From Gammaproteobacteria bacterium (GTDB taxonomy: Bacteria > Pseudomonadota > Gammaproteobacteria > GCA-002705445 > GCA-002716945), in the NCBI GenBank assembly GCA_045561295.1, contig JBJKYD010000013.1, positions 1 through 63,617 of the forward strand: 63,617 nt of DNA, given 5' to 3'. How positions within the stretch are numbered: position 1 is the first letter of the stretch; each line of letters opens with the position of its first letter. Under the pieces are notes generated by a model that was not told where the DNA came from, ran no database searches, and was given only the letters and a program-made list of their open reading frames with translations. A program made the translations under genes and the position numbers. Positions 2,355 through 25,826 of this stretch are shown here, in pieces.

Positions 2355-3260
2355 ATGTATAAATTTGTATTTGTTTTGATTGCGGTAATCGTGTCATCTG
2401 GCGTACAAGCTGGAGAAGCAAGTAATGCAGTGAAACAAGTCAAAAACTCAACTCTAAATCAAGCGTTCTCTTATGGAGACTCTGCTGTTGAATCATGGGC
2501 AAAAGAAAATCTCTCTAGCCTAAGACTTATAGAAATAGAGACTAGGACTAGAGAATCCTCAAAACCTACTTTTAGAGCGATTTCATTATTTGAAATTGCA
2601 GGAAATGATTTCAAGAAAATTCTGACACAACTATCATATTCTACATTCGATAGTGACGAGACTTTGAATGCTGGACTTATTTATAGAATGATGAATAACG
2701 ACATGACCGTAATCTATGGTGTAAACATATTTTATGATTATCAATTTAATACTGGACACAAAAGGTCGGGTGTTGGATTTGAAATGAAGTCGAGTGTATA
2801 CGATGTAAACATTAACTTATATGAAGCAGAATCAAACCTCCATCACGTAGACGGAGTTCCTGAAGTTGCAGCAGGTGGCTATGATGCTGAAGTTGGTATG
2901 CAAGTTCCATACCTGCCTTGGGCAAAACTATATTACAAAGCATATCAATGGAATAATGAAACATTAAATATAAAAGATGGTCAGAACATAAGTTTATATA
3001 TGGAACCAACATCACGACTGTCTTTAGAATTAGGTCTTCAAGATGATGATAGTATGACAAAAAATGGGTTTCTTAAATTAAATTATATCGTGTGCTGCAA
3101 TGAGAGAAAGATGGGACCTTCTATATTCACTGTATCAAACCAAGCATTTAATTATGCTAGAGTCAGTGGCGATAGAATGTATGAAAAGGTCAGAAGAGAA
3201 AATAATATAATTACAGTCAGAGGTGGCGGAGCATTCAGGGTAACAGCTAACGGATTTTAA
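2355..3260 (+). CDS. Inverse autotransporter beta-domain protein (no passenger)
   Basis: Signal peptide; TLNAGLIYR, YGVNIFYDY, HKRSGVGFE, GYDAEVG..VPYLPW and KVRRENNII motifs of the intimin/invasin-type barrel; SD AGGGGG upstream. Confidence 0.75.
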   Translation: MYKFVFVLIAVIVSSGVQAGEASNAVKQVKNSTLNQAFSYGDSAVESWAKENLSSLRLIEIETRTRESSKPTFRAISLFEIAGNDFKKILTQLSYSTFDSDETLNAGLIYRMMNNDMTVIYGVNIFYDYQFNTGHKRSGVGFEMKSSVYDVNINLYEAESNLHHVDGVPEVAAGGYDAEVGMQVPYLPWAKLYYKAYQWNNETLNIKDGQNISLYMEPTSRLSLELGLQDDDSMTKNGFLKLNYIVCCNERKMGPSIFTVSNQAFNYARVSGDRMYEKVRRENNIITVRGGGAFRVTANGF

Positions 3261-3262
3261 AA

Positions 3263-4105
3263 ATGAGAAAAATTTTACTTACATTAAGCGCACTTTTATT
3301 ATTTCCACTTGTTGGAAATACAGCTGCATGCACAGTGAGCTCAGGAGTAACTACAATTGTCGGTGGCGCATGTGAGAGTCAACCAGACTCTTATGGTATT
3401 GTAATGTATAAAATGTATTTGTGTACATCTACACCAACTCAACCAACAACCGCAGCAGCAGCAAATTTAACTGCAGGTGGATGTGTGCTTGTTCTTGATG
3501 GTGGGTCAGGGGTAAGAATAGATATTACTGGATCCGATAAAGTAGATTTCACTGGCTCAACATTCACTAAACCTCCTGCGGGTGTCTATACTCATGGTTA
3601 CATGCATATTGATAATATCTTTTACGTAAAACAACAACGAATTTTCAACGAAGCAAAAGAGGGCCAAAAAACTGGTACTGATAATGGAATTCACTGTTCA
3701 ACTTTATCTGGGACAGGTACTGATGCAGGTCAGAATTCTACATGTGGATCTTCTGCTATTACACCTGGGATTTGGGGTTCAACAATGACTGACTTCGATG
3801 GTGAAGCAGCGGGCATTCAAGCAACTGCTACGCGAAATAACCTGAATAATACAGGAAGTAATATAACAGGTGTTTTGATTGATACGAACGGACATGAGGC
3901 TACTAGTACAGGTGAAGTTGACTCTCTTGGTGGTTTTCAAACTTTTGGTACACCTATAAATGTCTCAACTAATCTTAAAGAACTTAATATCTCCTTTGGA
4001 ATCAGTGAGGGTTCAGTGATTTTTGAAGATGATAGTGATCCTAATGTGGTTGGTTTCAGTAGTGGTCCTTTCCAGGCAGTAATAACTCCAGTCAATCACG
4101 AATAA
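3263..4105 (+). CDS. Secreted hypothetical protein, Thr/Gly/Ser-rich with several Cys
   Basis: Signal peptide (MRKILLTLSALLLFPLVGNTAA); starts 2 bp after the barrel gene; beta-rich composition. Confidence 0.7.
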   Translation: MRKILLTLSALLLFPLVGNTAACTVSSGVTTIVGGACESQPDSYGIVMYKMYLCTSTPTQPTTAAAANLTAGGCVLVLDGGSGVRIDITGSDKVDFTGSTFTKPPAGVYTHGYMHIDNIFYVKQQRIFNEAKEGQKTGTDNGIHCSTLSGTGTDAGQNSTCGSSAITPGIWGSTMTDFDGEAAGIQATATRNNLNNTGSNITGVLIDTNGHEATSTGEVDSLGGFQTFGTPINVSTNLKELNISFGISEGSVIFEDDSDPNVVGFSSGPFQAVITPVNHE

Positions 4106-10494: not shown

Positions 10495-11898
10495 ATGAAA
10501 TATTTCCCCTTTTTCTTACAATTGAATAAGCTACCATGTTTAATAATTGGAGGCGGATCAGTTGCAGAGAGGAAATTAGATCTTCTAGTAAAAGCTAATG
10601 CAGACATAACCATTGTATCCATTGAATTTACAGATTACATACTTGAACTGTCAAAGACGAATAATATTAAGTGTATTACCAAAGAATACTCACAAAAATT
10701 ATTAGAAGAAAAAAGATATAAATTTGTAATTGCTGCAACTAATAATGTAACTTTAAATGAACAAGTAGCAAAAGATTGCGACAATCATAATATTCTCATA
10801 AACGTTGTCGATCAACCTAATATATGTGATTTTATATTCCCATCAATTTTAGAAAGAGGAGATATAACTGTTGCTGTCTCAACAGGAGGAGCATCTCCTG
10901 TACTAGCTAGAATGCTAAGAACAAAATTAGAAACCATGGTTCCATCAAACTATGGAAAACTAGCAGCAATAGTATCCGCCAATAGGATTAAAGTTAGAGA
11001 TAAAATGAAAAAATTTTCTTCGAATAAAATATTCTGGGAACAAATGCTTAATGGTAAATTCTTTGAATTAGTTTTATCAGGAAGAAATGAGGAAGCTGAA
11101 CTATTTCTTGATGAGCAAATTGAAAATTTTAATGAGGATACTGCAAATCAAGGTGAGGTCTATTTGGTCGGCGCAGGTCCAGGCGATCCAGATTTACTAA
11201 CATTTAAAGCTCTACGATTAATGCAACAAGCAGATATTGCTTTATACGATAGGTTAGTACATCCATCGATAGTAGATCTAATTAGGCGTGATGCCACAAA
11301 AATATATGTTGGTAAAGAACGAGATAATCATGTGGTTCGTCAAGAAGAAATTAACCATTTACTCGTGAAGTACGCTAAAGAAGGCAAAAAAGTTCTTCGA
11401 CTTAAAGGCGGGGACCCTTTTATCTTTGGACGGGGAGGCGAGGAGATTGAAACTCTAGCAGAAGAGAAAATATCATTTCAAGTTGTACCAGGTATTACAA
11501 GTGCAAGTGGATGTTCGGCATACAGTGGAATACCTTTAACTCATAGAGATTATGCTCAGAGTTGTATTTTTGTAACAGGCCATCTTAAAGAAGGTAAGCT
11601 AGAGTTAGATTGGGAAAAACTAGTACAACCTAATCAAACAATTGTTTTTTATATGGGTCTTGTTTCGATTAAGATAATTTGTAATGAATTAATTAATAAT
11701 GGAATGGATAAAAAAACTCCATGTGCATTAGTTCAACAAGGCACAACCAACACTCAGAGAGAATACATATCAGTATTAAAGGATATGCCTGCATTAGTTG
11801 AAGCAAAGAAACCTAAAGCACCAACAATATTTATAATTGGTGGAGTGGTATCGTTAAGAGATAAGTTAAAGTGGTATACGACTAACGCTGAAGATTAA
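10495..11898 (+). CDS. cysG: Siroheme synthase
   Basis: N-terminal IIGGGSVAERK dehydrogenase/ferrochelatase domain plus VYLVGAGPGDPDLLT, RLKGGDPFIFGRGGEE, VPGITSA methyltransferase domain. Confidence 0.95.
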   Translation: MKYFPFFLQLNKLPCLIIGGGSVAERKLDLLVKANADITIVSIEFTDYILELSKTNNIKCITKEYSQKLLEEKRYKFVIAATNNVTLNEQVAKDCDNHNILINVVDQPNICDFIFPSILERGDITVAVSTGGASPVLARMLRTKLETMVPSNYGKLAAIVSANRIKVRDKMKKFSSNKIFWEQMLNGKFFELVLSGRNEEAELFLDEQIENFNEDTANQGEVYLVGAGPGDPDLLTFKALRLMQQADIALYDRLVHPSIVDLIRRDATKIYVGKERDNHVVRQEEINHLLVKYAKEGKKVLRLKGGDPFIFGRGGEEIETLAEEKISFQVVPGITSASGCSAYSGIPLTHRDYAQSCIFVTGHLKEGKLELDWEKLVQPNQTIVFYMGLVSIKIICNELINNGMDKKTPCALVQQGTTNTQREYISVLKDMPALVEAKKPKAPTIFIIGGVVSLRDKLKWYTTNAED

Positions 11899-12442
11899 AG
11901 TTTATCGGTATTCTTAAATCAATACTCTTCTTGCCTATTGAATCTGGTATTGGAGGAAATGGAGAGGATTTAAGGACAATTTTCTGAGCTTCCCTATCAA
12001 GTAGTCTATAGCCAGATGAAACCACCGACAAATTAGTTACCGCACCGTTTTGCAATATTGTAAATTCTACAACTGGTGTCCCTTCTTGGCGTCTTTGCAA
12101 AGATAGAAGCGGATACTTCTTGTTTGAATCAAGAATATTTCTGATAACTCCATAGTAAGATTGATATATTTTTTCAGCTTTATCACCTTGTATCCTATTA
12201 TCAAATATAGCTTGCTGTTCTTGCTCAATTTCTTTTAAAATTTCTTTTTCTTCACTTAAAACTGATTCTTCTTCTTGAATATCATCAGTTTTATCTTGTA
12301 TCAATACCATTTGAATTTGCATACCTTGTTCACCAATCTGACTTATATCTTGTTTCATAAAAGTACTTTTAAAAGATATGAAAAATAGCATGTGTATGAC
12401 TAATGATATAAGTATGTATTTATTTAATTGATCAGTTTGCAT
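11882..12442 (-). CDS. tonB: TonB energy transducer
   Basis: N-terminal TM helix with S..IH motif; YP..S..R.QEG..VV.F.I, SSG...LD..A, PFPP.P, IPINF. Probable start ATG 12442, overlapping exbD. Confidence 0.85.
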   Translation of the reverse strand: MQTDQLNKYILISLVIHMLFFISFKSTFMKQDISQIGEQGMQIQMVLIQDKTDDIQEEESVLSEEKEILKEIEQEQQAIFDNRIQGDKAEKIYQSYYGVIRNILDSNKKYPLLSLQRRQEGTPVVEFTILQNGAVTNLSVVSSGYRLLDREAQKIVLKSSPFPPIPDSIGKKSIDLRIPINFNLQR

Positions 12443-18818: not shown

Positions 18819-19264
18819 TTACAACATCCTTTGTTAAATTTTTTCAGTCTCCAATAATTATAAGGCCAAGGTGTTAAAAAACCTGCAAGTAACATCAAAG
18901 GCATTACCATAAGATTAATTTTTGCACCACCTGTTACTAAATAATCTACTAAGTTCATTGCAATTTCCATACTGATCATTGAGATAAGACTCATTCCAAT
19001 CGCTGTCCTAAACGCAGCTTTTAAATCCATTTGTTTTAACAAAATTATAGTTTCTAAAATAATACTAGTTAATATTCCGTTAGTCATAGCCAGTAGCATA
19101 ATTGAAAGTGTGCTCCATGGAATTTGATTTACTTGAAAATAATATATCGTGCCCATGTCACCAATACTGCAACCTACCAAGCACCACATGGTATTATACG
19201 CAGACTGTTTCCATGTATGATTACATTCCCAATCAATTGTTCTATCAAATACTGCTAAAATCAT
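18815..19264 (-). CDS. DUF4396-like membrane protein
   Basis: T.WCL.GC.IGD, MSLISM.SME.AMN..D, AGF.TPWPYNYW; probable start ATG 19264 (ATGA overlap with upstream stop). Confidence 0.7.
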   Translation of the reverse strand: MILAVFDRTIDWECNHTWKQSAYNTMWCLVGCSIGDMGTIYYFQVNQIPWSTLSIMLLAMTNGILTSIILETIILLKQMDLKAAFRTAIGMSLISMISMEIAMNLVDYLVTGGAKINLMVMPLMLLAGFLTPWPYNYWRLKKFNKGCCN

Positions 19265-19563
19265 AGTTCTATACAAATGTTATTATCCTCAATGATTGTA
19301 GGATATGTTTTTATTGGCTCATCAGCAGGCTCATTAAGCGCCTCACCTGTTTCTAGATCAAAGTAACTTCCATGTAATGAGCACTTTATAGTTTTGTCTT
19401 TTAAGCATCCAAGAATTAATTCAGAGTTTTCATGGCTGCACATATTATCAACCACAAAGTACTCCTCATTCACTTTAGCAACAAGGTATGAATGTTTTTC
19501 ATGAATAATTTCTAACATATTATTTTCAGAAAAAGCATCAGTTGAGCATAATGTAACAATCAT
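19261..19563 (-). CDS. Rieske-type [2Fe-2S] ferredoxin
   Basis: CSH...CSLHGSYFDL.TGE (CxH/CxxH). Confidence 0.9.
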   Translation of the reverse strand: MIVTLCSTDAFSENNMLEIIHEKHSYLVAKVNEEYFVVDNMCSHENSELILGCLKDKTIKCSLHGSYFDLETGEALNEPADEPIKTYPTIIEDNNICIEL

Positions 19564-20666
19564 GATTTCATTCGTTTTAGTGCTGAGCCACTATCAATAA
19601 CTTTTAATACCTCTTTGGAACATTCTTTAACATCGTTGCCTGTCATCCTTTGAAGTATAATCGAGGCCCCTAGTTGTATACATGATTTCATAGCTCCGTT
19701 TTTACCAGATAGAGCTTCTTGTCCAGATTTTACTGTTGCTTTGGCAATATCTGTTGCTGATACTTTTGATTCAATCTTATCTTTTGTATCTTTTCTCACT
19801 ATACCTTCGGGAATATCAACAGCCCTTGATTCATCATTAATTTGCAAGTCTTCTGGCTTAACCTCATACATCTTATCTTCTTCACCAGGCTTATCATAAT
19901 AATGGACTTTACCAATTTGCCTTAACGATGGGATAATTCCACCCTCTGTACCTCTTACTACACTTGCGGAGTGGAACTCAGCATTTCTAGATAATTCAAG
20001 ATAGATTGGCGGATAAGGTTTGTGAACAAAGCCTGTAAAAAATGCATCATGTTTAGAACTGATTGGCTTAACGAGAACTTCTACTGTAGTTATAACTGGT
20101 CTTTTAATAATTTTTTTCCTAAGGTTCATTAAGTTGTGAAGTTTAGGATTAAAAATAGATTGATCAGCGTAAGCCCACCCAATATTTTTATCTTCTAATC
20201 GAGCTGCAATTTCCTCATGTGAATTCTCACAATTATAATTAAGCTCTTTAAGAGTGAGATGATGAGTACAGCCGTATTTTGGACCAACAGATAAAACCCC
20301 ATGAGAGATTATTGGATATCCTAATTCTGCAAGGACAGGCAATAAAAAAATTGATGAAGGTAGGTTTCTAGAAAAGCCATCATATGGATCAGCTATATTA
20401 ATTAAATTATCGGTAGCTATATTTATAGAATGGGTTGTTTCAATAATTGCATCATGAACCCCTAGATTTTCGTCCATGGTTTCTCTTTTCATTCTTAGGG
20501 CAATAAGAAAAATTGCAGCTTGTATGGGATCAATTTCATCATTAAGAATATCCATCATCGTTTGCTTAGCTTCTTCTCTTGAAATATTTTTACTAAGCTC
20601 AGGACCTGTAGCTATTCTTTGAATAACAGACTTCATATTTTCATTTGGGCTTAATTTATTATTCAT
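19560..20666 (-). CDS. Anthranilate phosphoribosyltransferase-like (TrpD2/YbiB-like) protein
   Basis: GT3 N-terminal helical domain (SREEA...M..IL...IDP.QAA.FLIALRMKRET), GFVHKPY, VRGTEG; lacks the TrpD GTGGD PRPP-binding motif. Confidence 0.7.
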   Translation of the reverse strand: MNNKLSPNENMKSVIQRIATGPELSKNISREEAKQTMMDILNDEIDPIQAAIFLIALRMKRETMDENLGVHDAIIETTHSINIATDNLINIADPYDGFSRNLPSSIFLLPVLAELGYPIISHGVLSVGPKYGCTHHLTLKELNYNCENSHEEIAARLEDKNIGWAYADQSIFNPKLHNLMNLRKKIIKRPVITTVEVLVKPISSKHDAFFTGFVHKPYPPIYLELSRNAEFHSASVVRGTEGGIIPSLRQIGKVHYYDKPGEEDKMYEVKPEDLQINDESRAVDIPEGIVRKDTKDKIESKVSATDIAKATVKSGQEALSGKNGAMKSCIQLGASIILQRMTGNDVKECSKEVLKVIDSGSALKRMKS

Positions 20667-21262
20667 TTAAAAACTATCCAAGTTGTTGCAATATACTTTG
20701 AACCTTTTTTAAGTGTAACACCTCGATGTTCATGGGTCCAAAATGGGGGAAATACTACTAACTTACCCTCTTCAGGTTTTACCTTAACTTTTTGATGTAA
20801 AAATTCAGTTTCTCCACCAGGGCCTTCTACATCATTTAGATACCATATAGCGACGAGTTGCCTATCACTCATTTGGTGACTCCCACTATCTACATGCCAG
20901 TGAAAATATTCTCCAACATCTGTTCTTTGAATGGCGTAACCAATATCTTTGAATTTTCCATTAAAATAATCATATTCTTTTTTTATTTTAGATAGAGCTT
21001 TCGATAAGCTTACAAAAAATAATTCATCAACATCTTTCCATGAATCTTTACCACTGATAACCATATCAGTAGATTTTTTTACCGTATCATTTTCTTCAAA
21101 GTTAGGACCAACTCTACCTCGATAATGATCATCTTTAGATTCCTCGAATCTTTCAATTATTTCCTTACACTTTTGTGATGGAATTTCATTATCAAATTCA
21201 AAGATAAAACTTCCTGGCAAGCTTTCTATAAGTCTTTTTTCTATTTTTATTTCGTTAGCCAT
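20663..21262 (-). CDS. 2OG-Fe(II) oxygenase
   Basis: WHVD (HxD), IWYLNDV..GGETEF, FPPFWTHEHRG, KYI.TTW. Confidence 0.85.
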   Translation of the reverse strand: MANEIKIEKRLIESLPGSFIFEFDNEIPSQKCKEIIERFEESKDDHYRGRVGPNFEENDTVKKSTDMVISGKDSWKDVDELFFVSLSKALSKIKKEYDYFNGKFKDIGYAIQRTDVGEYFHWHVDSGSHQMSDRQLVAIWYLNDVEGPGGETEFLHQKVKVKPEEGKLVVFPPFWTHEHRGVTLKKGSKYIATTWIVFK

Positions 21263-21302
21263 AATATTTATATTACACAGTAAATGTTATCATCTGAATA
21301 CT

Positions 21303-21866
21303 ATGGCAATAAGAATTAAAAGCAAGTGGTCTAAAACAGTTAAAAGAAGTAAAACTCCTGAGGATTTTGGAAGCGCCCTTTCTTTTATTTCATGGAGATT
21401 ATCTCTTGATAAAGCAAAGACACTTCATGGTGAGGATTTTGAATATGAAAATGATCATCAAAGAGTGTCTGTAATAGTAGAGTACATGTCCTTTCAAGTG
21501 CACCTTGTTGACAGGCTGTTGTATGAAGATAAAGCTGATAATGATTTTAGAGCTGAAGTAATGAATTCTCTTGGCAAGCAATCTTCAAGAATAATGCAAG
21601 AAAATTGTGAGGATTTGTTTGGTCCAGGTGATTATAAAAAAGGATATATAAACACTCTCAACATAAGATCATCAGAATATTCTCAATTTGAATTCTCTAG
21701 AAAAGGGAGTAATTATTCCTTATACAGGCATCTATCAAAAAAATGTCAAGATGTTATGGGGTACAGTCAAACGAACAAATGGGTTATGGATCAGATTATC
21801 GATATAGATTCTGTAGAGATATTGAAAAAGATTCTGGAAGTTTATGATTCAGTGACAAAGTCCTAA
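21303..21866 (+). CDS. Hypothetical protein
   Basis: 187-aa intact ORF; N-terminus RIKS.W and A..FI.WR recall an uncharacterised family I associate with sulfur oxidisers (recollection, unverified). Confidence 0.65.
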   Translation: MAIRIKSKWSKTVKRSKTPEDFGSALSFISWRLSLDKAKTLHGEDFEYENDHQRVSVIVEYMSFQVHLVDRLLYEDKADNDFRAEVMNSLGKQSSRIMQENCEDLFGPGDYKKGYINTLNIRSSEYSQFEFSRKGSNYSLYRHLSKKCQDVMGYSQTNKWVMDQIIDIDSVEILKKILEVYDSVTKS

Positions 21867-21867
21867 A

Positions 21868-22062
21868 TTAGTCTTTAAATTTTTCTACGTTGTCAAAATT
21901 ATTATTTTTTCCATCTTCATATCCAGCTTGATATGCGTCAGTCATTCTTTGTTCTTCTACTTCAGGTGCATCTTGATAACCTTCTTGCCAACCTAAGACG
22001 TACTGTTCGTTAGCTTTCATGTTTTCAAGTTCAGTTACTTTATCAAAATATTCTTTATTCAT
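21868..22062 (-). CDS. Alvin_2107-like sulfur-globule oxidation protein
   Basis: Y.LGW..GY...P..EEQR.T.AY.AGYEDGK pattern recognised from that small family; context next to dsr. Confidence 0.65.
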   Translation of the reverse strand: MNKEYFDKVTELENMKANEQYVLGWQEGYQDAPEVEEQRMTDAYQAGYEDGKNNNFDNVEKFKD

Positions 22063-22295
22063 TATGTTCTTATTGACCCCTTAATCTTATGAGCGATATC
22101 AACTAGTCTGTTTGCAAGCTTTTCATGCTCTTCTTTGTATTCTTTAACGATACCCTTGGGATTATGATGAATATCTTTTTCTGTAACTCCTTTCTCTCTC
22201 TCAAGATCCATAAATTTTTTTTGAATCTCTAAAATTCTTGTAATAATTTCTTTTCTTTCTTTTTGAAGATCTTTCTCGTTTACTGACTCAGTCAT
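22062..22295 (-). CDS. Small helical hypothetical protein
   Basis: Stop/start overlaps with both neighbours; E.QKKF...E...G, L..IAH..KGS.R. Confidence 0.7.
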   Translation of the reverse strand: MTESVNEKDLQKERKEIITRILEIQKKFMDLEREKGVTEKDIHHNPKGIVKEYKEEHEKLANRLVDIAHKIKGSIRT

Positions 22296-22633
22296 TAGTA
22301 TCCACCTTTTCTTCTGCTTTCAGGTAAACCACCAATTCTACCTGCTTGTTTACTAGGGTTGCCTGGGAACAAGTCAAATAATGTTTTTGAATCAATCTTT
22401 TCTCCCCATAGTTTTCCCATATCTTTAATCATATTCCTAGTGTTTGGTTGATTTTCTTTATTATTTATAAATTCATCTCTGAGATAATTAATAACATCCC
22501 AATGTCTCTCTGTCAGTTCAATACCTTCTTGTTGTGCAATAACTAATGCTATTTCTTTTGTCCAGTCCTCAATACTAGTCAAAAAGCCTGTGTCTGTAGT
22601 GGATATCTCTTTTCCATCAACTTCAACTTTCAT
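22295..22633 (-). CDS. TusE/DsrC-family protein lacking the C-terminal cysteines (RspA-type)
   Basis: GFL....DW...IA..IA..EGIELT..HW.VI.YLR, LF.LFP..P.KQA..I.GLP; ends ESRRKGGY with no Cys; SD GAGGAG before ATG 22633. Confidence 0.85.
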   Translation of the reverse strand: MKVEVDGKEISTTDTGFLTSIEDWTKEIALVIAQQEGIELTERHWDVINYLRDEFINNKENQPNTRNMIKDMGKLWGEKIDSKTLFDLFPGNPSKQAGRIGGLPESRRKGGY

Positions 22634-22662
22634 ATCTGACTCCTCATAATCTGAATTTATCA

Positions 22663-22682
22663 ATATTGGAAAATTCTAATAT
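22663..22682. promoter_or_regulatory. Near-perfect inverted repeat upstream of the RspA-type gene
   Basis: ATATTGGAA-AA-TTCTAATAT (one mismatch). Confidence 0.5.
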
Positions 22683-22720
22683 ACTACAAAGTATAAGTCT
22701 ATAAGGTTATAAATAAATTC

Positions 22721-23398
22721 TCAGTCTTCTTTGAAATTATTGACTGCATCAATAGATTTATGCGGAAGGAAAATACCACAACCATATAATTTTTTTCCAC
22801 CTACACCCTCTTCTTGGATTTTGAGAGATTCCTCTTTGGATAAATCAGCAATCATGAGAGACCTTGTGTAGACTGTGTTTTTATCAAAATTAATTGTCAT
22901 AGATCTCCCACAAAGAGCTTTTTTAATATTAACATTGAAATTTCTGAGCTCCATTTGAATTTTTTCAAGGAAATCATCTTCTGAAATCTTATTATCACTA
23001 ATGACGAATCTACAAAACAAGTCCTTAACTATTAGAAAATTTTTTACTTTTGATATACCTATTTTCAGGCTATTTCCAAAAAGTTTAATCTCTTTACCTT
23101 CAATATCTTTAATGTCATCAATTTGATTTTTATTTATACGCATTATCAATTTTGCTCTTTTAGACAAAGGAATATTTTCACTATCAGGCCTGACCCAACC
23201 ATTGCCAGACATTGGACCATGTAGCGTTTGAATTGAGTTTCTCTTATCATTTTTAATTTGTGGAATCAGGTTTAGAATTTCTGAGGAAAGTTCGTAGGCA
23301 TGATCATAGGGGAGCTCTCTACAATTTACAGAGAATGATAACTCAGCCATATCAGAATCATCAGCAATTGATTTTTTCTGATCAGTCTCTTGCCACAT
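22721..23398 (-). CDS. cas6: Orphan Cas6/Cmx6-like RAMP endoribonuclease
   Basis: N-terminal LSF....LPYDHAYEL, L..R, I.L.G..L.IG, and C-terminal Gly-rich loop S..IQEEGVGGKKLYGCGIFLP (GhGxxxxxGhG); start moved to ATG 23398. Confidence 0.8.
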   Translation of the reverse strand: MWQETDQKKSIADDSDMAELSFSVNCRELPYDHAYELSSEILNLIPQIKNDKRNSIQTLHGPMSGNGWVRPDSENIPLSKRAKLIMRINKNQIDDIKDIEGKEIKLFGNSLKIGISKVKNFLIVKDLFCRFVISDNKISEDDFLEKIQMELRNFNVNIKKALCGRSMTINFDKNTVYTRSLMIADLSKEESLKIQEEGVGGKKLYGCGIFLPHKSIDAVNNFKED

Positions 23399-23403
23399 AA
23401 TTA

Positions 23404-23598
23404 CTAATCTCGTATACAACCACTGAATACACTCTCGACACGATCTTGCCAATCATCGGGTGTATCTGGAAATGGCGGCTTCAAATCAAATCTGATAAAC
23501 ATTTCTCCCTCTGCAGCCTTCTGTCTAACGACATCGAGAAGCTCATCAAATGTTTCAACATCTTTACGTTCTATTAGTAGTGCGCTTAGATACAACAT
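23404..23598 (-). CDS. Small hypothetical protein (64 aa) of the dsr-flanking operon
   Basis: TFDELL..VR..A..GE.F...D.KPPFPDTP.DW..R.E..F; start overlaps the tauD-like stop. Confidence 0.7.
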   Translation of the reverse strand: MLYLSALLIERKDVETFDELLDVVRQKAAEGEMFIRFDLKPPFPDTPDDWQDRVESVFSGCIRD

Positions 23599-24437
23599 TA
23601 CAGTCTCTCATATGATCTTATTCTAAGAAGTTTTCTATTTACTTTATCATCTTTAAAGGAATTTCTACCATGTAAAATATTGTTAGTCAAAATACCTTGA
23701 TTCTTACAAAGCTTATATGTAAGTGAATACTGAGCACAATGACTTTCAATAATTTTTTTTAACCTCGTGATGGCATCAGATGCTCTCGTGCTCGATGATA
23801 TATTATCTTTTCTCATAGAGAATCGCATATGTAATTTTTTATACGCATTGCTGAACGAGAAGATATACGTTGATATTTCGGATCTAGATGTATCCTTACT
23901 TTCAGGAATAATTAGTGCGCCATCTTCCATCAAAACATTTATATCATCATTTCTTAAGATATACTCTCTAAGTACAAGCTCATGATCAAGTAAATAATTT
24001 TCACCACCTTCACTTGAAGGGCTTACACAATGGAGAAGCCATGAGAATATTGATTTCTCATCATAATAACCGTCTGTATGCCAATTGAGTGCTTTCTCAG
24101 TATAGGGAATATAACTCACTTTGCTGGTTTCTCTTGGCGTAATAGTACTGATTTTATTTAAATCTATGTTGTTACAGTCATATGTTTTCATACCTATCGA
24201 CTCGACAAATCTCAAAAGGTTGGAGTTAGATTTTAGATTCATATTTGAGGCATATATGCAGCAGTTGTATGTCTGGATTATTTCTTTAATCTTGGTAATT
24301 TCAGTTGTTGTTACATTATTAATATCATGGATTTCCACCAATAATTCATTAATATTTTGAGGGATATTCTTCTCTTTTTCCTCAGCCCACCTTAGAAATT
24401 CAGTTGATTTTGATGTCAATATCATACTTTTATACAC
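23598..24437 (-). CDS. TauD/TfdA-family 2OG-Fe(II) dioxygenase
   Basis: IPYT...LNWHTDGYY (HxD), LLHC..P...GGEN.L.D, NNILHGR.SF, R.L.R.R; start GTG 24437 or ATG 24425. Confidence 0.85.
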   Translation of the reverse strand: MYKSMILTSKSTEFLRWAEEKEKNIPQNINELLVEIHDINNVTTTEITKIKEIIQTYNCCIYASNMNLKSNSNLLRFVESIGMKTYDCNNIDLNKISTITPRETSKVSYIPYTEKALNWHTDGYYDEKSIFSWLLHCVSPSSEGGENYLLDHELVLREYILRNDDINVLMEDGALIIPESKDTSRSEISTYIFSFSNAYKKLHMRFSMRKDNISSSTRASDAITRLKKIIESHCAQYSLTYKLCKNQGILTNNILHGRNSFKDDKVNRKLLRIRSYERL

Positions 24438-24569
24438 TGTTTAATCATAGGTTATTTTAATACTTGTTTTTTATAATAAATCCATGCAATATTAACTTCA
24501 CGTGGACATATTAGAAATCAATGATAAAATAATATACATTGGAAACCAAAGGATTTTAGGGGAATATTT

Positions 24570-25826
24570 GTGAAAAAACATGATACACCAATGATTGATG
24601 AGCTTGAGAATGGCCCATGGCCAAGCTTCATAAGTGGAATTAAAAGACTCAGGGACACACATCCTGAGAAACGAATTAATGAAATGACTAATGACCTACT
24701 AGGTCAATTGGAGCATTCATATGAAACACGCAAAGGTTACTGGAAAGGTGGCACAGTGAGTGTTTATGGTTATGGCGGAGGAATTATTCCAAGATTCTCC
24801 GAAGTGGGTAACGCATTTCCTGCATCCAAAGAATTTCATACTTTAAGAGTTCAACCTCCTGCAGGTAATTTTTATTCAACAAGTATGCTAAGAAAGCTTG
24901 CGGACAGTTGGGAGAAGCATGGCTCAGGTCTAGTAACATTCCATGGGCAAACAGGCAATATAATGTTTATTGGTTCAACAACAGAGAATACCCAACACTT
25001 CTTTGATGAAATTAATGACTATGGTTTTGACCTTGGTGGCGCAGGACCATGTGTAAGAACAGCAATGTCTTGTGTTGGTGCCGGTCGTTGTGAGATGTCT
25101 AATGTTAATGAGCATAAAGCTCACAGACTTCTTGTGAATAATTTTACTGATGACGTACACAGACCAGCTTTACCATATAAATTTAAATTTAAAGTCTCAG
25201 GTTGCCCAAATGATTGTATGAACTCTATCGAGAGAGCCGATATGTCAGTCATTGGAACATGGAGAGATGATATAAAAATCGATCAGGAAGAATTTAAAAA
25301 ATTTGTCGAAATGAAAGGACGTAAATATGTTATTGATAATATCGTTACAAGATGTCCTACGAATGCGATTTCTCTAAATGATGATGATTCAATTCAAATA
25401 GATAACCAAAACTGTGTTAAATGTATGCACTGTCTAAATGTAGTGCCTAAAGCACTCCAGTGTGGAGACGACAAAGGCGTCACTATACTTATTGGTGGTA
25501 AAAGAACACTTAAAATCGGTGATCTTATGGGAACTGTTATTGTTCCATTCATGAAACTCGAGAAAGAGGAGGATTGGGAAAGACTTGTCGAAATTGCCGA
25601 GGAAACAATTGACTTCTGGGCTGATAATGCCCTTGAGCATGAGAGATGCGGTGAGATGATTGAAAGAATCGGCCTAGTAAACTTCTTGGAAGGCGTCGGC
25701 TTTGATGTCGATCCAAACATGGTAGCAAACCCTAGAGAGAGCTCATACGTCAGAACCGATGACTGGGATGATGAAGCGGTAAAATGGTATGAGAAAATCG
25801 ATGAACGCAAAAAAGGATCAGCATAA
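24570..25826 (+). CDS. dsrA: Dissimilatory sulfite reductase alpha subunit (oxidative type)
   Basis: GPWPSF, YWKGG, CVGAGRCE, PYKFKFKVSGCPNDC siroheme/Fe-S motif, CVKCMHC; SD TAGGGG. Confidence 0.98.
   Translation: MKKHDTPMIDELENGPWPSFISGIKRLRDTHPEKRINEMTNDLLGQLEHSYETRKGYWKGGTVSVYGYGGGIIPRFSEVGNAFPASKEFHTLRVQPPAGNFYSTSMLRKLADSWEKHGSGLVTFHGQTGNIMFIGSTTENTQHFFDEINDYGFDLGGAGPCVRTAMSCVGAGRCEMSNVNEHKAHRLLVNNFTDDVHRPALPYKFKFKVSGCPNDCMNSIERADMSVIGTWRDDIKIDQEEFKKFVEMKGRKYVIDNIVTRCPTNAISLNDDDSIQIDNQNCVKCMHCLNVVPKALQCGDDKGVTILIGGKRTLKIGDLMGTVIVPFMKLEKEEDWERLVEIAEETIDFWADNALEHERCGEMIERIGLVNFLEGVGFDVDPNMVANPRESSYVRTDDWDDEAVKWYEKIDERKKGSA

Follow-up and report, generated by a model that had tools for sequence, protein, structure and literature searches.

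What are the genes that are transcribed away from dsrA, and do they belong to the pathway that dsrA serves? The reverse dissimilatory sulfite reductase (Dsr) pathway is the main route for the oxidation of stored sulfur in many marine and sediment bacteria, and its gene list (dsrABEFHCMKLJOPNRS) is treated as essentially complete. The question is raised here by a stretch of 63,617 nucleotides (nt) from a member of the Gammaproteobacteria (assembly GCA_045561295.1, contig JBJKYD010000013.1; GTDB lineage ending in GCA-002705445; GCA-002716945), which was analysed at its full length and is referred to below as the window. Six genes occupy its minus strand at 21868–24437, divergently from dsrA, and encode a TauD-like dioxygenase, a protein of 64 amino acids (aa; orf64), a member of the Cas6/Cmx6 family, a cysteine-less paralogue of DsrC, a protein of 77 aa (orf77) and an Alvin_2107-family protein. 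An earlier note, made from the sequence, had described the six open reading frames (ORFs), their spacing and the single 87-nt gap, and every detail of it that could be checked was correct; as it stated, none of the six belongs to the canonical dsrABEFHCMKLJOPNR set, although the TauD-like gene already has the name dsrQ in print. We show that these genes belong to a conserved, dsrA-tied set containing a Cas6 homologue without CRISPR (clustered regularly interspaced short palindromic repeats) and a sulfur-blind paralogue of DsrC. Judging from gene positions and sequences, this set is probably a vertically co-inherited accessory set of the oxidative (reverse) Dsr pathway that would work along the lines proposed below, a reading towards which we lean as a whole, with much less confidence in each of its mechanistic steps. 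The genes and spacers concerned are the following.

23598–24437, minus strand: TauD-like Fe(II)/2-oxoglutarate (2OG) dioxygenase (dsrQ), 279 aa; PF02668; divergent from dsrA.
23404–23598, minus strand: orf64, acidic protein of 64 aa; start overlaps the dsrQ stop (TAATG).
22721–23398, minus strand: Cas6/Cmx6-family protein of the repeat-associated mysterious protein (RAMP) type, 225 aa; best start ATG 23398; PF09559 and TIGR02807.
22634–22720, minus strand: gap of 87 nt that contains a promoter-like site and probably marks where a second transcription unit begins.
22295–22633, minus strand: cysteine-less paralogue of oxidative DsrC, 112 aa, ending in RKGGY; start ATG 22633; PF04358.
22062–22295, minus strand: orf77, protein of 77 aa; TAATG overlap with the DsrC-like gene upstream.
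21868–22062, minus strand: Alvin_2107-family protein, 64 aa; TAATG overlap with orf77; NF049856.
24438–24569, no strand: divergent intergenic region between dsrQ and dsrA, 132 nt, read directly in the sequence.
24570–25826, plus strand: dsrA, first gene of dsrABEFHCMKLJOPNR; TIGR02064, 611 bits against a cut-off of 392.85.

The Cas6-like start lies 5 nt from the end of orf64. The divergent region shared with dsrA, which the earlier note had put at 132 nt, has this length if the TauD-like protein starts at GTG 24437 (ATG 24425 is the alternative) and dsrA at GTG 24570. On the plus strand dsrABEFHCMKLJOPNR follows, in which dsrA, B, C, M, K, J and P and L-, N- and R-like genes were verified and dsrE was located by tblastn.

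The association of these genes with dsrA was followed in a family-balanced sample of the class, in which 400 genomes were scored for the Cas6-like and TauD-like proteins and 401 for dsrA (one genome, G271, was left out of the first two). The Cas6-like profile matched 125 of 400 genomes, one of them (G331) by a weak match and with neither of the other two genes; the TauD-like protein had the same profile (125 of 400), and dsrA was found in 124 of 401. Cas6-like gene and dsrA occurred together in 118 genomes, and all three genes were present in 115 of the 133 genomes that have any of them, a pattern which covers 97 genera; no P-value is attached to it, because the genomes are kin. On a shared contig (93 genomes), Cas6-like gene and dsrA were within 6 kb of one another and on opposite strands in 88 cases and far apart in five, and they were on different contigs in a further 25 genomes. 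The exceptions are due partly, not wholly, to incomplete assemblies. Two genomes (G104 and G219) have the Cas6-like gene without the TauD-like one. Photosynthetic reaction-centre genes were found in ten genomes (G271 was not scored), of which G333 alone has dsrA, with the gene cluster studied here adjoining it. In a sample at the level of the phylum the Cas6-like profile matched four of 351 genomes, and the matches listed were all from the class of the window, so that little can be read from it about other classes; in two more distant genomes from this sample dsrA faces the Cas6-like gene, which is followed by a DsrC-like gene whose product ends in GKGGY.

A second view was obtained from loci centred on the Cas6-like gene, for which one genome per species was scanned; this yielded 116 relatives, and the 80 best of them were retained. 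Wherever titles were informative, the relatives came from gammaproteobacterial sulfur oxidisers (Thioalkalivibrio denitrificans, Thiohalomonas, Thiohalobacter, Thiomargarita, Thioploca, Parabeggiatoa and many metagenome-assembled genomes); Thioalkalivibrio denitrificans (L092) carries the whole set. In these best 80 loci the gene directly upstream of the Cas6-like one is orf64 in 72 of the 76 that leave space for it; 55 of 69 have the TauD-like gene on that side as well, and 49 of 56 a divergent dsrA at a distance of no more than 5 kb. The DsrC-like gene is found within 2.5 kb downstream in 61 of 69 loci (on the same strand in 45), and orf77 downstream in 47 of 80. Where at least 8 kb of downstream flank is available (49 loci), the Alvin_2107 gene is no more than 11 kb away in 35. 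Thirteen of the 80 carry an extra gene for a protein of approx. 240 aa between orf64 and the Cas6-like gene. Gene order, which the earlier note had allowed might not extend past close relatives, is thus clearly conserved beyond them: the order seen in the window is met again in other genera and families. Where Cas6-centred loci lie outside the family of the window, their modules are separated or inverted, and the arrangement in the window is a family-specific compaction of modules that lie apart in other bacteria. With 88 of 93 shared-contig genomes and the 80 Cas6-centred loci in agreement, the genes form a real dsr-linked accessory set, and the arrangement is so far beyond chance that chance is excluded.

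By sequence and fold the Cas6-like protein is a true member of the Cas6 family. It matched PF09559 with 183.9 bits against 26.7 (E 4e-54) and TIGR02807 with 126.2 bits against a cut-off of 98.85, and its predicted model (predicted local distance difference test, pLDDT, 75) consists of two ferredoxin-like (RAMP) domains and a C-terminal glycine-rich loop. The nearest solved structure is the endoribonuclease Cas6 of a type I-B CRISPR-associated transposon (8fcj_B; hidden Markov model (HMM) E 1.2e-19; Foldseek template modelling (TM) score 0.75), followed by other Cas6 structures. Over 51 sequences, down to 32% identity to the protein of the window, 21 columns are invariant, among them H33, G67-W68, R81, R87, K160, T178-M182, G198, G206, G208 and K214; the gene is single-copy and intact. 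Unlike Cas6/Cmx6 endoribonucleases at home in CRISPR systems, with which it shares the family, the two-domain fold, the glycine-rich loop and an aspartate-histidine (D-H) motif, it has a fixed place beside dsrA and no array or cas genes in its locus or genome. The window's genome (92% complete) contains no Cas1 and no array of spaced 20-mer repeats, and what tblastn with the locus proteins reveals around the 80 related loci is dsr genes and not cas genes. The Cas6-like protein is not part of a CRISPR system in this genome.

As a control we used genome G045, in which a weak match (1.8e-30) belongs to a genuine type I-B locus; a 36-nt repeat array is accompanied there by a WYL regulator, cas3, cas8b, cas5 and cas4-cas1. 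Aligned with the control, the dsr-linked clade has kept the D-H motif (with H33 invariant) and the glycine-rich loop (GxG...GCG in the control), and it has acquired a nine-residue insertion, SGNGWxRP, as well as a TRSLM motif, both of which vary little or not at all across the 51 sequences. Cas6 enzymes have a catalytic histidine and are usually basic proteins. The dsr-linked clade is instead net acidic, with a median isoelectric point (pI) of 6.0 and a median net charge of −4, against a pI of 9.3 in the single CRISPR-linked control. In public databases such genes are hidden, since they are labelled as CRISPR proteins: those of the present loci are annotated as 'type I-MYXAN CRISPR-associated protein Cas6/Cmx6', the Cas6-like profile was matched at E ≤ 1e-10 by at least 5004 proteins (8000 candidates scored), and among the 120 matches listed all carry PF09559 and every source name given is Cas6. 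A predicted complex of the Cas6-like protein with its neighbour orf64 scored 0.00 against a mark of 0.32, which speaks neither for nor against an interaction. The orf64 protein is acidic (pI 4.3) and has no Pfam or NCBIfam match; S5, F17, D38, P41, D45, T46, P47, W50, E55 and F58 are invariant in 49 sequences (loci L061 and L089 were left out of the alignment). In one of the two distant genomes (G723, locus L111) the position directly upstream of the Cas6-like gene is taken by a gene of the DUF6967 family (1226–1480; PF22295, E 2.8e-29), for which comparison with orf64 by hhalign gave a probability of 4.6% and so did not establish homology; a two-domain rhodanese gene (2599–3450) follows the GKGGY-type DsrC-like gene there.

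The earlier note had called the fourth protein a DsrC without cysteines, and this was borne out: it contains no Cys and matched PF04358 with 111.4 bits (E 3.6e-32) and TIGR03342 with 97.3 bits against 53.5. Its nearest solved relative is the oxidative DsrC of Allochromatium vinosum (1yx3, E 7e-30), while a chain named 'Sulfurtransferase' (7syb) came last of eight PDB matches (8.5e-11). Family, length and the conserved 'AGLP' arm are shared with oxidative DsrC. The C-terminal arm of DsrC and TusE has a penultimate Cys, and that of DsrC a second one approx. ten residues before it; the paralogue has neither and so cannot form a persulfide or trisulfide as they do, its arm being two residues longer and closing in an invariant RKGGY. 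All 60 of 60 Cas6-adjacent DsrC-like proteins end in this way, where DsrC ends in PTGCV, and the DsrC copies of the dsr operon have a PTGC[VI] end in 40 of 41 cases. R108, K109, G110, G111 and Y112 are invariant in 51 sequences, from which a filter for the KGGY ending had removed no row. The flexible C-terminal arm of DsrC enters DsrAB. That the tail of such an arm is invariant speaks for an RKGGY arm which would still enter a binding pocket, as that of DsrC does, although the protein, being without cysteine, cannot carry sulfur. By its sequence it would fall into the Cys-less 'RspA-like' class, which is named with function unknown in the portion of PMC8477390 consulted.

Genes for Cys-less, RKGGY-tailed DsrC-like proteins were also seen on three contigs of the viral collection IMG/VR (L105/L106, L107 and L108) with no other gene of the cluster. 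One of these copies (L105, 4974–5315) has a phage-like context, which suggests that the RKGGY protein is useful on its own; another (L108), on a contig of 220 kb, is directly preceded by a second DsrC-like gene. Excerpts of PMC8190135 and PMC4164917 describe DsrC-like genes of phages, with function unknown, in which one cysteine motif or both are missing. A third DsrC-like gene stands at the far end of some loci from the window's family, after the Rieske or the TrpD-like gene introduced below (L039 and L042 at approx. 14.2 kb, L041 at approx. 6.0 kb, L015 and L018). In L039, L041 and L042 its product ends in ...KKLWLD[ML], with neither Cys nor KGGY, and it has no counterpart in the window.

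The TauD-like protein matched PF02668 with 43.3 bits against a cut-off of 27 (E 5.5e-11), and its AlphaFold model (pLDDT 92) has a TauD-type fold. In 41 aligned sequences, from which rows shorter than 240 aa were left out, H120, D122, H256 and R258/R268/R272 are invariant; the HxD...H iron triad is thus intact and an arginine for the binding of 2OG is retained, and because of the triad the O2- and 2OG-dependent chemistry suggested earlier is plausible. The nearest solved folds are small-molecule hydroxylases (TmpA, BBOX1, CarC, AsnO and CsiD; TM approx. 0.6), in NCBIfam and by fold the protein is matched best by trimethyllysine, butyrobetaine and TmpA-type hydroxylases and not by taurine dioxygenase, and a sequence search of the PDB gave no match. 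A tauD-like gene opposite dsrA, named dsrQ, is reported to lie upstream of dsr clusters, both on Roseobacter-clade fosmids and in most sulfur oxidisers that are aerobic or facultative chemotrophs (an excerpt of PMC7596348, which cites Lenk et al. 2012), and the gene at 23598–24437 of the window agrees with that excerpt in being tauD-like and transcribed divergently from dsrA. Another excerpt (PMC6018796) lists 'DsrQ/DsrU (unknown functions)'; DsrU might be one of the genes downstream of dsrQ.

The last gene of the six matched the whole of the Alvin_2107 model (NF049856, 'globule sulfur oxidation protein'; positions 1–59 of 59, 79.4 bits against a cut-off of 60), and a gene of this family was present in 24 of 41 related genomes. 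In A. vinosum it lies by the soxYZ cluster (Alvin_2108–2112), as far as the consulted part of PMC3368242 describes it, and not beside dsrA, whereas the copy of the window stands in the dsrA-divergent locus. The orf77 protein has no Pfam or NCBIfam match and shows the conserved motifs LEMQKKF and AH.EKGS. The names dsrQ and Alvin_2107 are thus already in print, without known function, and to that extent the locus is not the undescribed system that the earlier note had taken it for; no report linking a Cas6-family gene, orf64, orf77 or an RKGGY-tailed DsrC to dsr was found in the literature searched, which did not extend to supplements, Lenk 2012 or Weissgerber 2014.

Whether the six genes are one operon, as had been proposed, was judged from RNA-derived contigs. 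Four metatranscriptome runs, taken from three studies, gave contigs over the DsrC-like gene and orf77, which in three of these runs also take in the Alvin_2107 gene wholly or partly; upstream they end at 22575, 22666, 22645 and 22645, and the 87-nt gap is not crossed by any of them. The junctions between dsrQ, orf64 and the Cas6-like gene are spanned by other RNA-derived contigs. Junctions are thus bridged within each half but not across the gap, and outside the family the modules lie apart. These data are a weak hint that there are probably two units, dsrQ-orf64-cas6-like and dsrC-like-orf77-Alvin_2107, split at the gap. Within the gap a promoter-like site (TAGACT-17-TAGAAT, 22701–22673, minus strand) was found, which is weak when taken alone, since the scan of 21200–24700 gave 11 sites, fewer than the mean of 17.8 in shuffled sequences. 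No terminators were found by scanning the same interval, and neither the 87-nt gap (z 0.03) nor the 132-nt spacer between dsrQ and dsrA (z 0.09) folds better than shuffles.

Outside the window's family the spacer between dsrA and dsrQ is longer (428–617 nt) and has strongly conserved blocks and a 16-bp palindrome, TAYCYC-N4-GRGRTA, which was recorded in L044, L047–L049, L062–L067, L071, L092 and others, approx. 1.0–2.2 kb upstream of the Cas6-like gene; in a subset of the long spacers a TGGCAC-N5-TTGC-like motif of the sigma-54 type was noticed by eye. The palindrome was considered as a Cas6 target and rejected, as it is absent from the 132-nt spacer of the window and from loci of the SUP05 and Beggiatoaceae types. 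It therefore goes with the dsrA promoter region and not with Cas6, and its sequence suggests an operator or a promoter element there.

The dsr-linked locus extends beyond the six genes. In every fetched genus of the window's family (L013–L020) they are accompanied by four further genes, which in the window are as follows.

21303–21866, plus strand: orf187, conserved protein without assigned family; convergent on the Alvin_2107 gene.
20663–21262, minus strand: prolyl-4-hydroxylase-like (P4H-like) 2OG-Fe(II) oxygenase, 199 aa; PF13640.
19560–20666, minus strand: TrpD-like/YbiB-like protein of glycosyl-transferase family 3, 368 aa; PF02885.
19261–19563, minus strand: Rieske-type [2Fe-2S] ferredoxin, 100 aa; PF00355.

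Of the 80 Cas6-centred loci 41 have orf187, 37 the P4H-like gene and 22 the TrpD-like gene, while the Rieske gene (PF00355, E 6.3e-16) is syntenic only in the loci closest to the window (L025–L042; 18 tblastn matches, 16 of them complete ORFs). The P4H-like protein, whose C-terminal half is very strongly conserved, matched PF13640 with E 4.3e-14 and has the prolyl-4-hydroxylase of Bacillus anthracis as nearest solved sequence (3itq, E 5.5e-8). The TrpD-like protein matched PF02885 (E 6.5e-15) and, below their respective cut-offs, the NCBIfam models PRK07394, PRK09071 and YbiB. No Pfam or NCBIfam match was obtained for orf187, and ESM Atlas returned unnamed clusters only. In two genomes of other families (L011 and L012) orf187 and the P4H-like gene adjoin the Alvin_2107 gene, the rest of the set being placed elsewhere in the same genomes (L011, L012, L023 and L024).

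How might such a set work? The core would be made up of dsrQ, orf64 and the Cas6/Cmx6-family protein, the latter having departed from CRISPR immunity to become a single-copy gene divergent from dsrA; beside it would stand the RKGGY paralogue of DsrC, orf77 and the Alvin_2107 protein, and the small genome of the window would have packed these modules together with orf187, the P4H-like and TrpD-like proteins and the Rieske ferredoxin into one locus. The RKGGY protein keeps the fold and the arm of DsrC and most likely docks at a DsrC site (on DsrAB, DsrEFH or DsrMK), where it could serve as a non-redox regulator, a placeholder or an assembly factor. The Cas6-like protein, with orf64, may be the partner of the RKGGY protein, an RNA- or protein-binding adaptor for the dsr system, or may act on dsr RNA, and DsrQ would add an O2- and 2OG-dependent hydroxylation of a small molecule. 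More tentatively, and as an idea that we would not yet call likely, a Cas6 endoribonuclease could have been captured once from a type I CRISPR system, have become a core, single-copy component of reverse Dsr and have been inherited with dsrAB across approx. 100 bacterial families, working with the RKGGY protein as a sulfur-blind DsrC decoy, in which the tail would stand in for the reactive cysteines. In the sampled genomes at least two further genes, the Cas6-family and the tauD-like one, track dsrA almost one-to-one, and the RKGGY DsrC gene usually adjoins the Cas6-family gene. If these genes matter for sulfur oxidation, they are concrete targets for knock-outs and may explain oxygen regulation, DsrC traffic or enzyme assembly. 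The Cas6 component would then illustrate how a CRISPR protein can be put to new use outside immunity, and should its histidine and glycine-loop site still be active, an RNA-dependent step would lie inside a central energy pathway, as a non-defence job for Cas6.

Several points weigh against the reading of the locus as an accessory set working in this way. The sampled genomes are related, so that the counts overstate independence. Six dsrA-positive genomes are without a Cas6-like gene, and four of these are at least 90% complete (G316, 99%; G177, 94%; G263, 92%; G397, 90%), the first lacking the TauD-like gene as well. Loci of the Beggiatoaceae type (Thiomargarita, Thioploca and Parabeggiatoa) keep only the orf64/Cas6-like pair, away from dsrA, and the pair can therefore be separated from it. 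RNA-derived contigs cannot prove transcript ends, co-transcription can be neither proved nor excluded by them, and carry-over of DNA is possible. The Cas6-like protein retains the D-H motif and the glycine-rich loop of its CRISPR-linked relative, and an RNA role therefore fits better than a purely protein-adaptor role. Finally, functions for all of these proteins are read from position and sequence, and binding of the RKGGY protein to a Dsr protein is a prediction.

The earlier note had suggested an RNA-processing or regulatory module, and in a developed form of this idea the Cas6-like protein would bind or cut the long dsr transcript or an unseen small RNA, thereby setting the stoichiometry or stability of dsr messages, while the two 2OG oxygenases would make the module responsive to O2. 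H33 and the G198/G206/G208 loop are invariant in the 51 sequences and align with the D-H motif and the GxG...GCG loop of the true type I-B relative, the predicted fold matches RNA-bound Cas6 structures, and the YbiB-like protein, of a family which binds nucleic acid, is a conserved neighbour. A substrate, by contrast, is not apparent, which does not prove that there is none: neither the dsr region nor the genome contains a repeat, an array or a shared hairpin (between 19000 and 37500 the direct and inverted repeats were only short, chance-like pairs), Rfam gave no match in the window, and the intergenic regions fold no better than shuffled sequence. The acidity of the clade also counts against RNA binding, weakly, as it is set against one control, and the clade-specific SGNGWxRP insertion is of unknown use. 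The conserved residues of the putative active site thus speak for the suggestion and the search for targets against it, and we regard a module devoted to RNA as possible but rather unlikely. Another explanation, that genes came together by chance or that the locus is a decayed CRISPR-Cas remnant, has the public Cas6/Cmx6 annotation on its side and is hardly credible for a single-copy, intact gene with 21 invariant columns, a position next to dsrA that is kept in 88 of 93 genomes and no cas genes or arrays nearby.

Two further explanations, both less likely, start from the enzymes. The locus could make or modify a low-molecular-weight thiol, sulfur carrier or cofactor for Dsr, with the TauD-, P4H- and TrpD-like proteins and the Rieske ferredoxin as enzymes and the small proteins as carriers or scaffolds. 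This would suit the small-molecule hydroxylases nearest to the TauD-like fold, the phosphoribosyl/glycosyl transferase fold of the TrpD-like protein and one neighbourhood (L067) that adds a PKHD-type hydroxylase, a GNAT acetyltransferase and a DUF6866 protein. Yet no pathway or product is recognisable, the solved relatives nearest to the P4H-like protein act on peptides, and the Cas6-like and RKGGY DsrC-like proteins, the parts most tightly linked to dsrA, would have no role, which makes the explanation improbable. Alternatively, the TauD-like enzyme might free sulfite from intracellular or ambient sulfonates and feed it into the dsr/sulfite pathway, its neighbours being unrelated passengers; release of sulfite from sulfonates by DsrQ is a speculation in print (excerpt of PMC7596348), and the intact iron triad and the match to the Pfam TauD family agree with it. 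That match is weak (43 bits), however, trimethyllysine, butyrobetaine and TmpA-type hydroxylases are closer, and the neighbours keep their place across many families and so are not passengers; we consider this explanation very doubtful. The accessory set of reverse Dsr is our preferred reading of the locus.

A few observations on single loci may be added. In the window a single nucleotide separates the stop codons of the Alvin_2107 gene and the convergent orf187 (21866–21868), which leaves no room for terminators between them, and one RNA-derived contig (X1, 21312–22575) spans both genes. Between the DsrC-like gene and orf187 of locus L067 (11618–14799) lie the genes for the PKHD-type 2OG hydroxylase, the GNAT acetyltransferase and the DUF6866 protein, so that this neighbourhood totals three 2OG oxygenases, the TauD-like and P4H-like ones included. 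Locus L023 (genome G036, 10750–12015) has, in place of the DsrC-like gene after the Cas6-like one, a gene for a multi-pass membrane protein of 421 aa, a match to which also stands after the Cas6-like gene in L101; it could be a sulfur transporter of the YeeE/YedE type. Lastly, in locus L024 (genome G026, contig C229, 2290–2730) a TauD-like fragment and an orf64 split over two frames lie upstream of orf240, the Cas6-like and the DsrC-like genes, and an intact TauD-like gene adjoins dsrA on another contig (C21) of the same genome; the arrangement of L024 looks like a decayed duplicate or a rearrangement.

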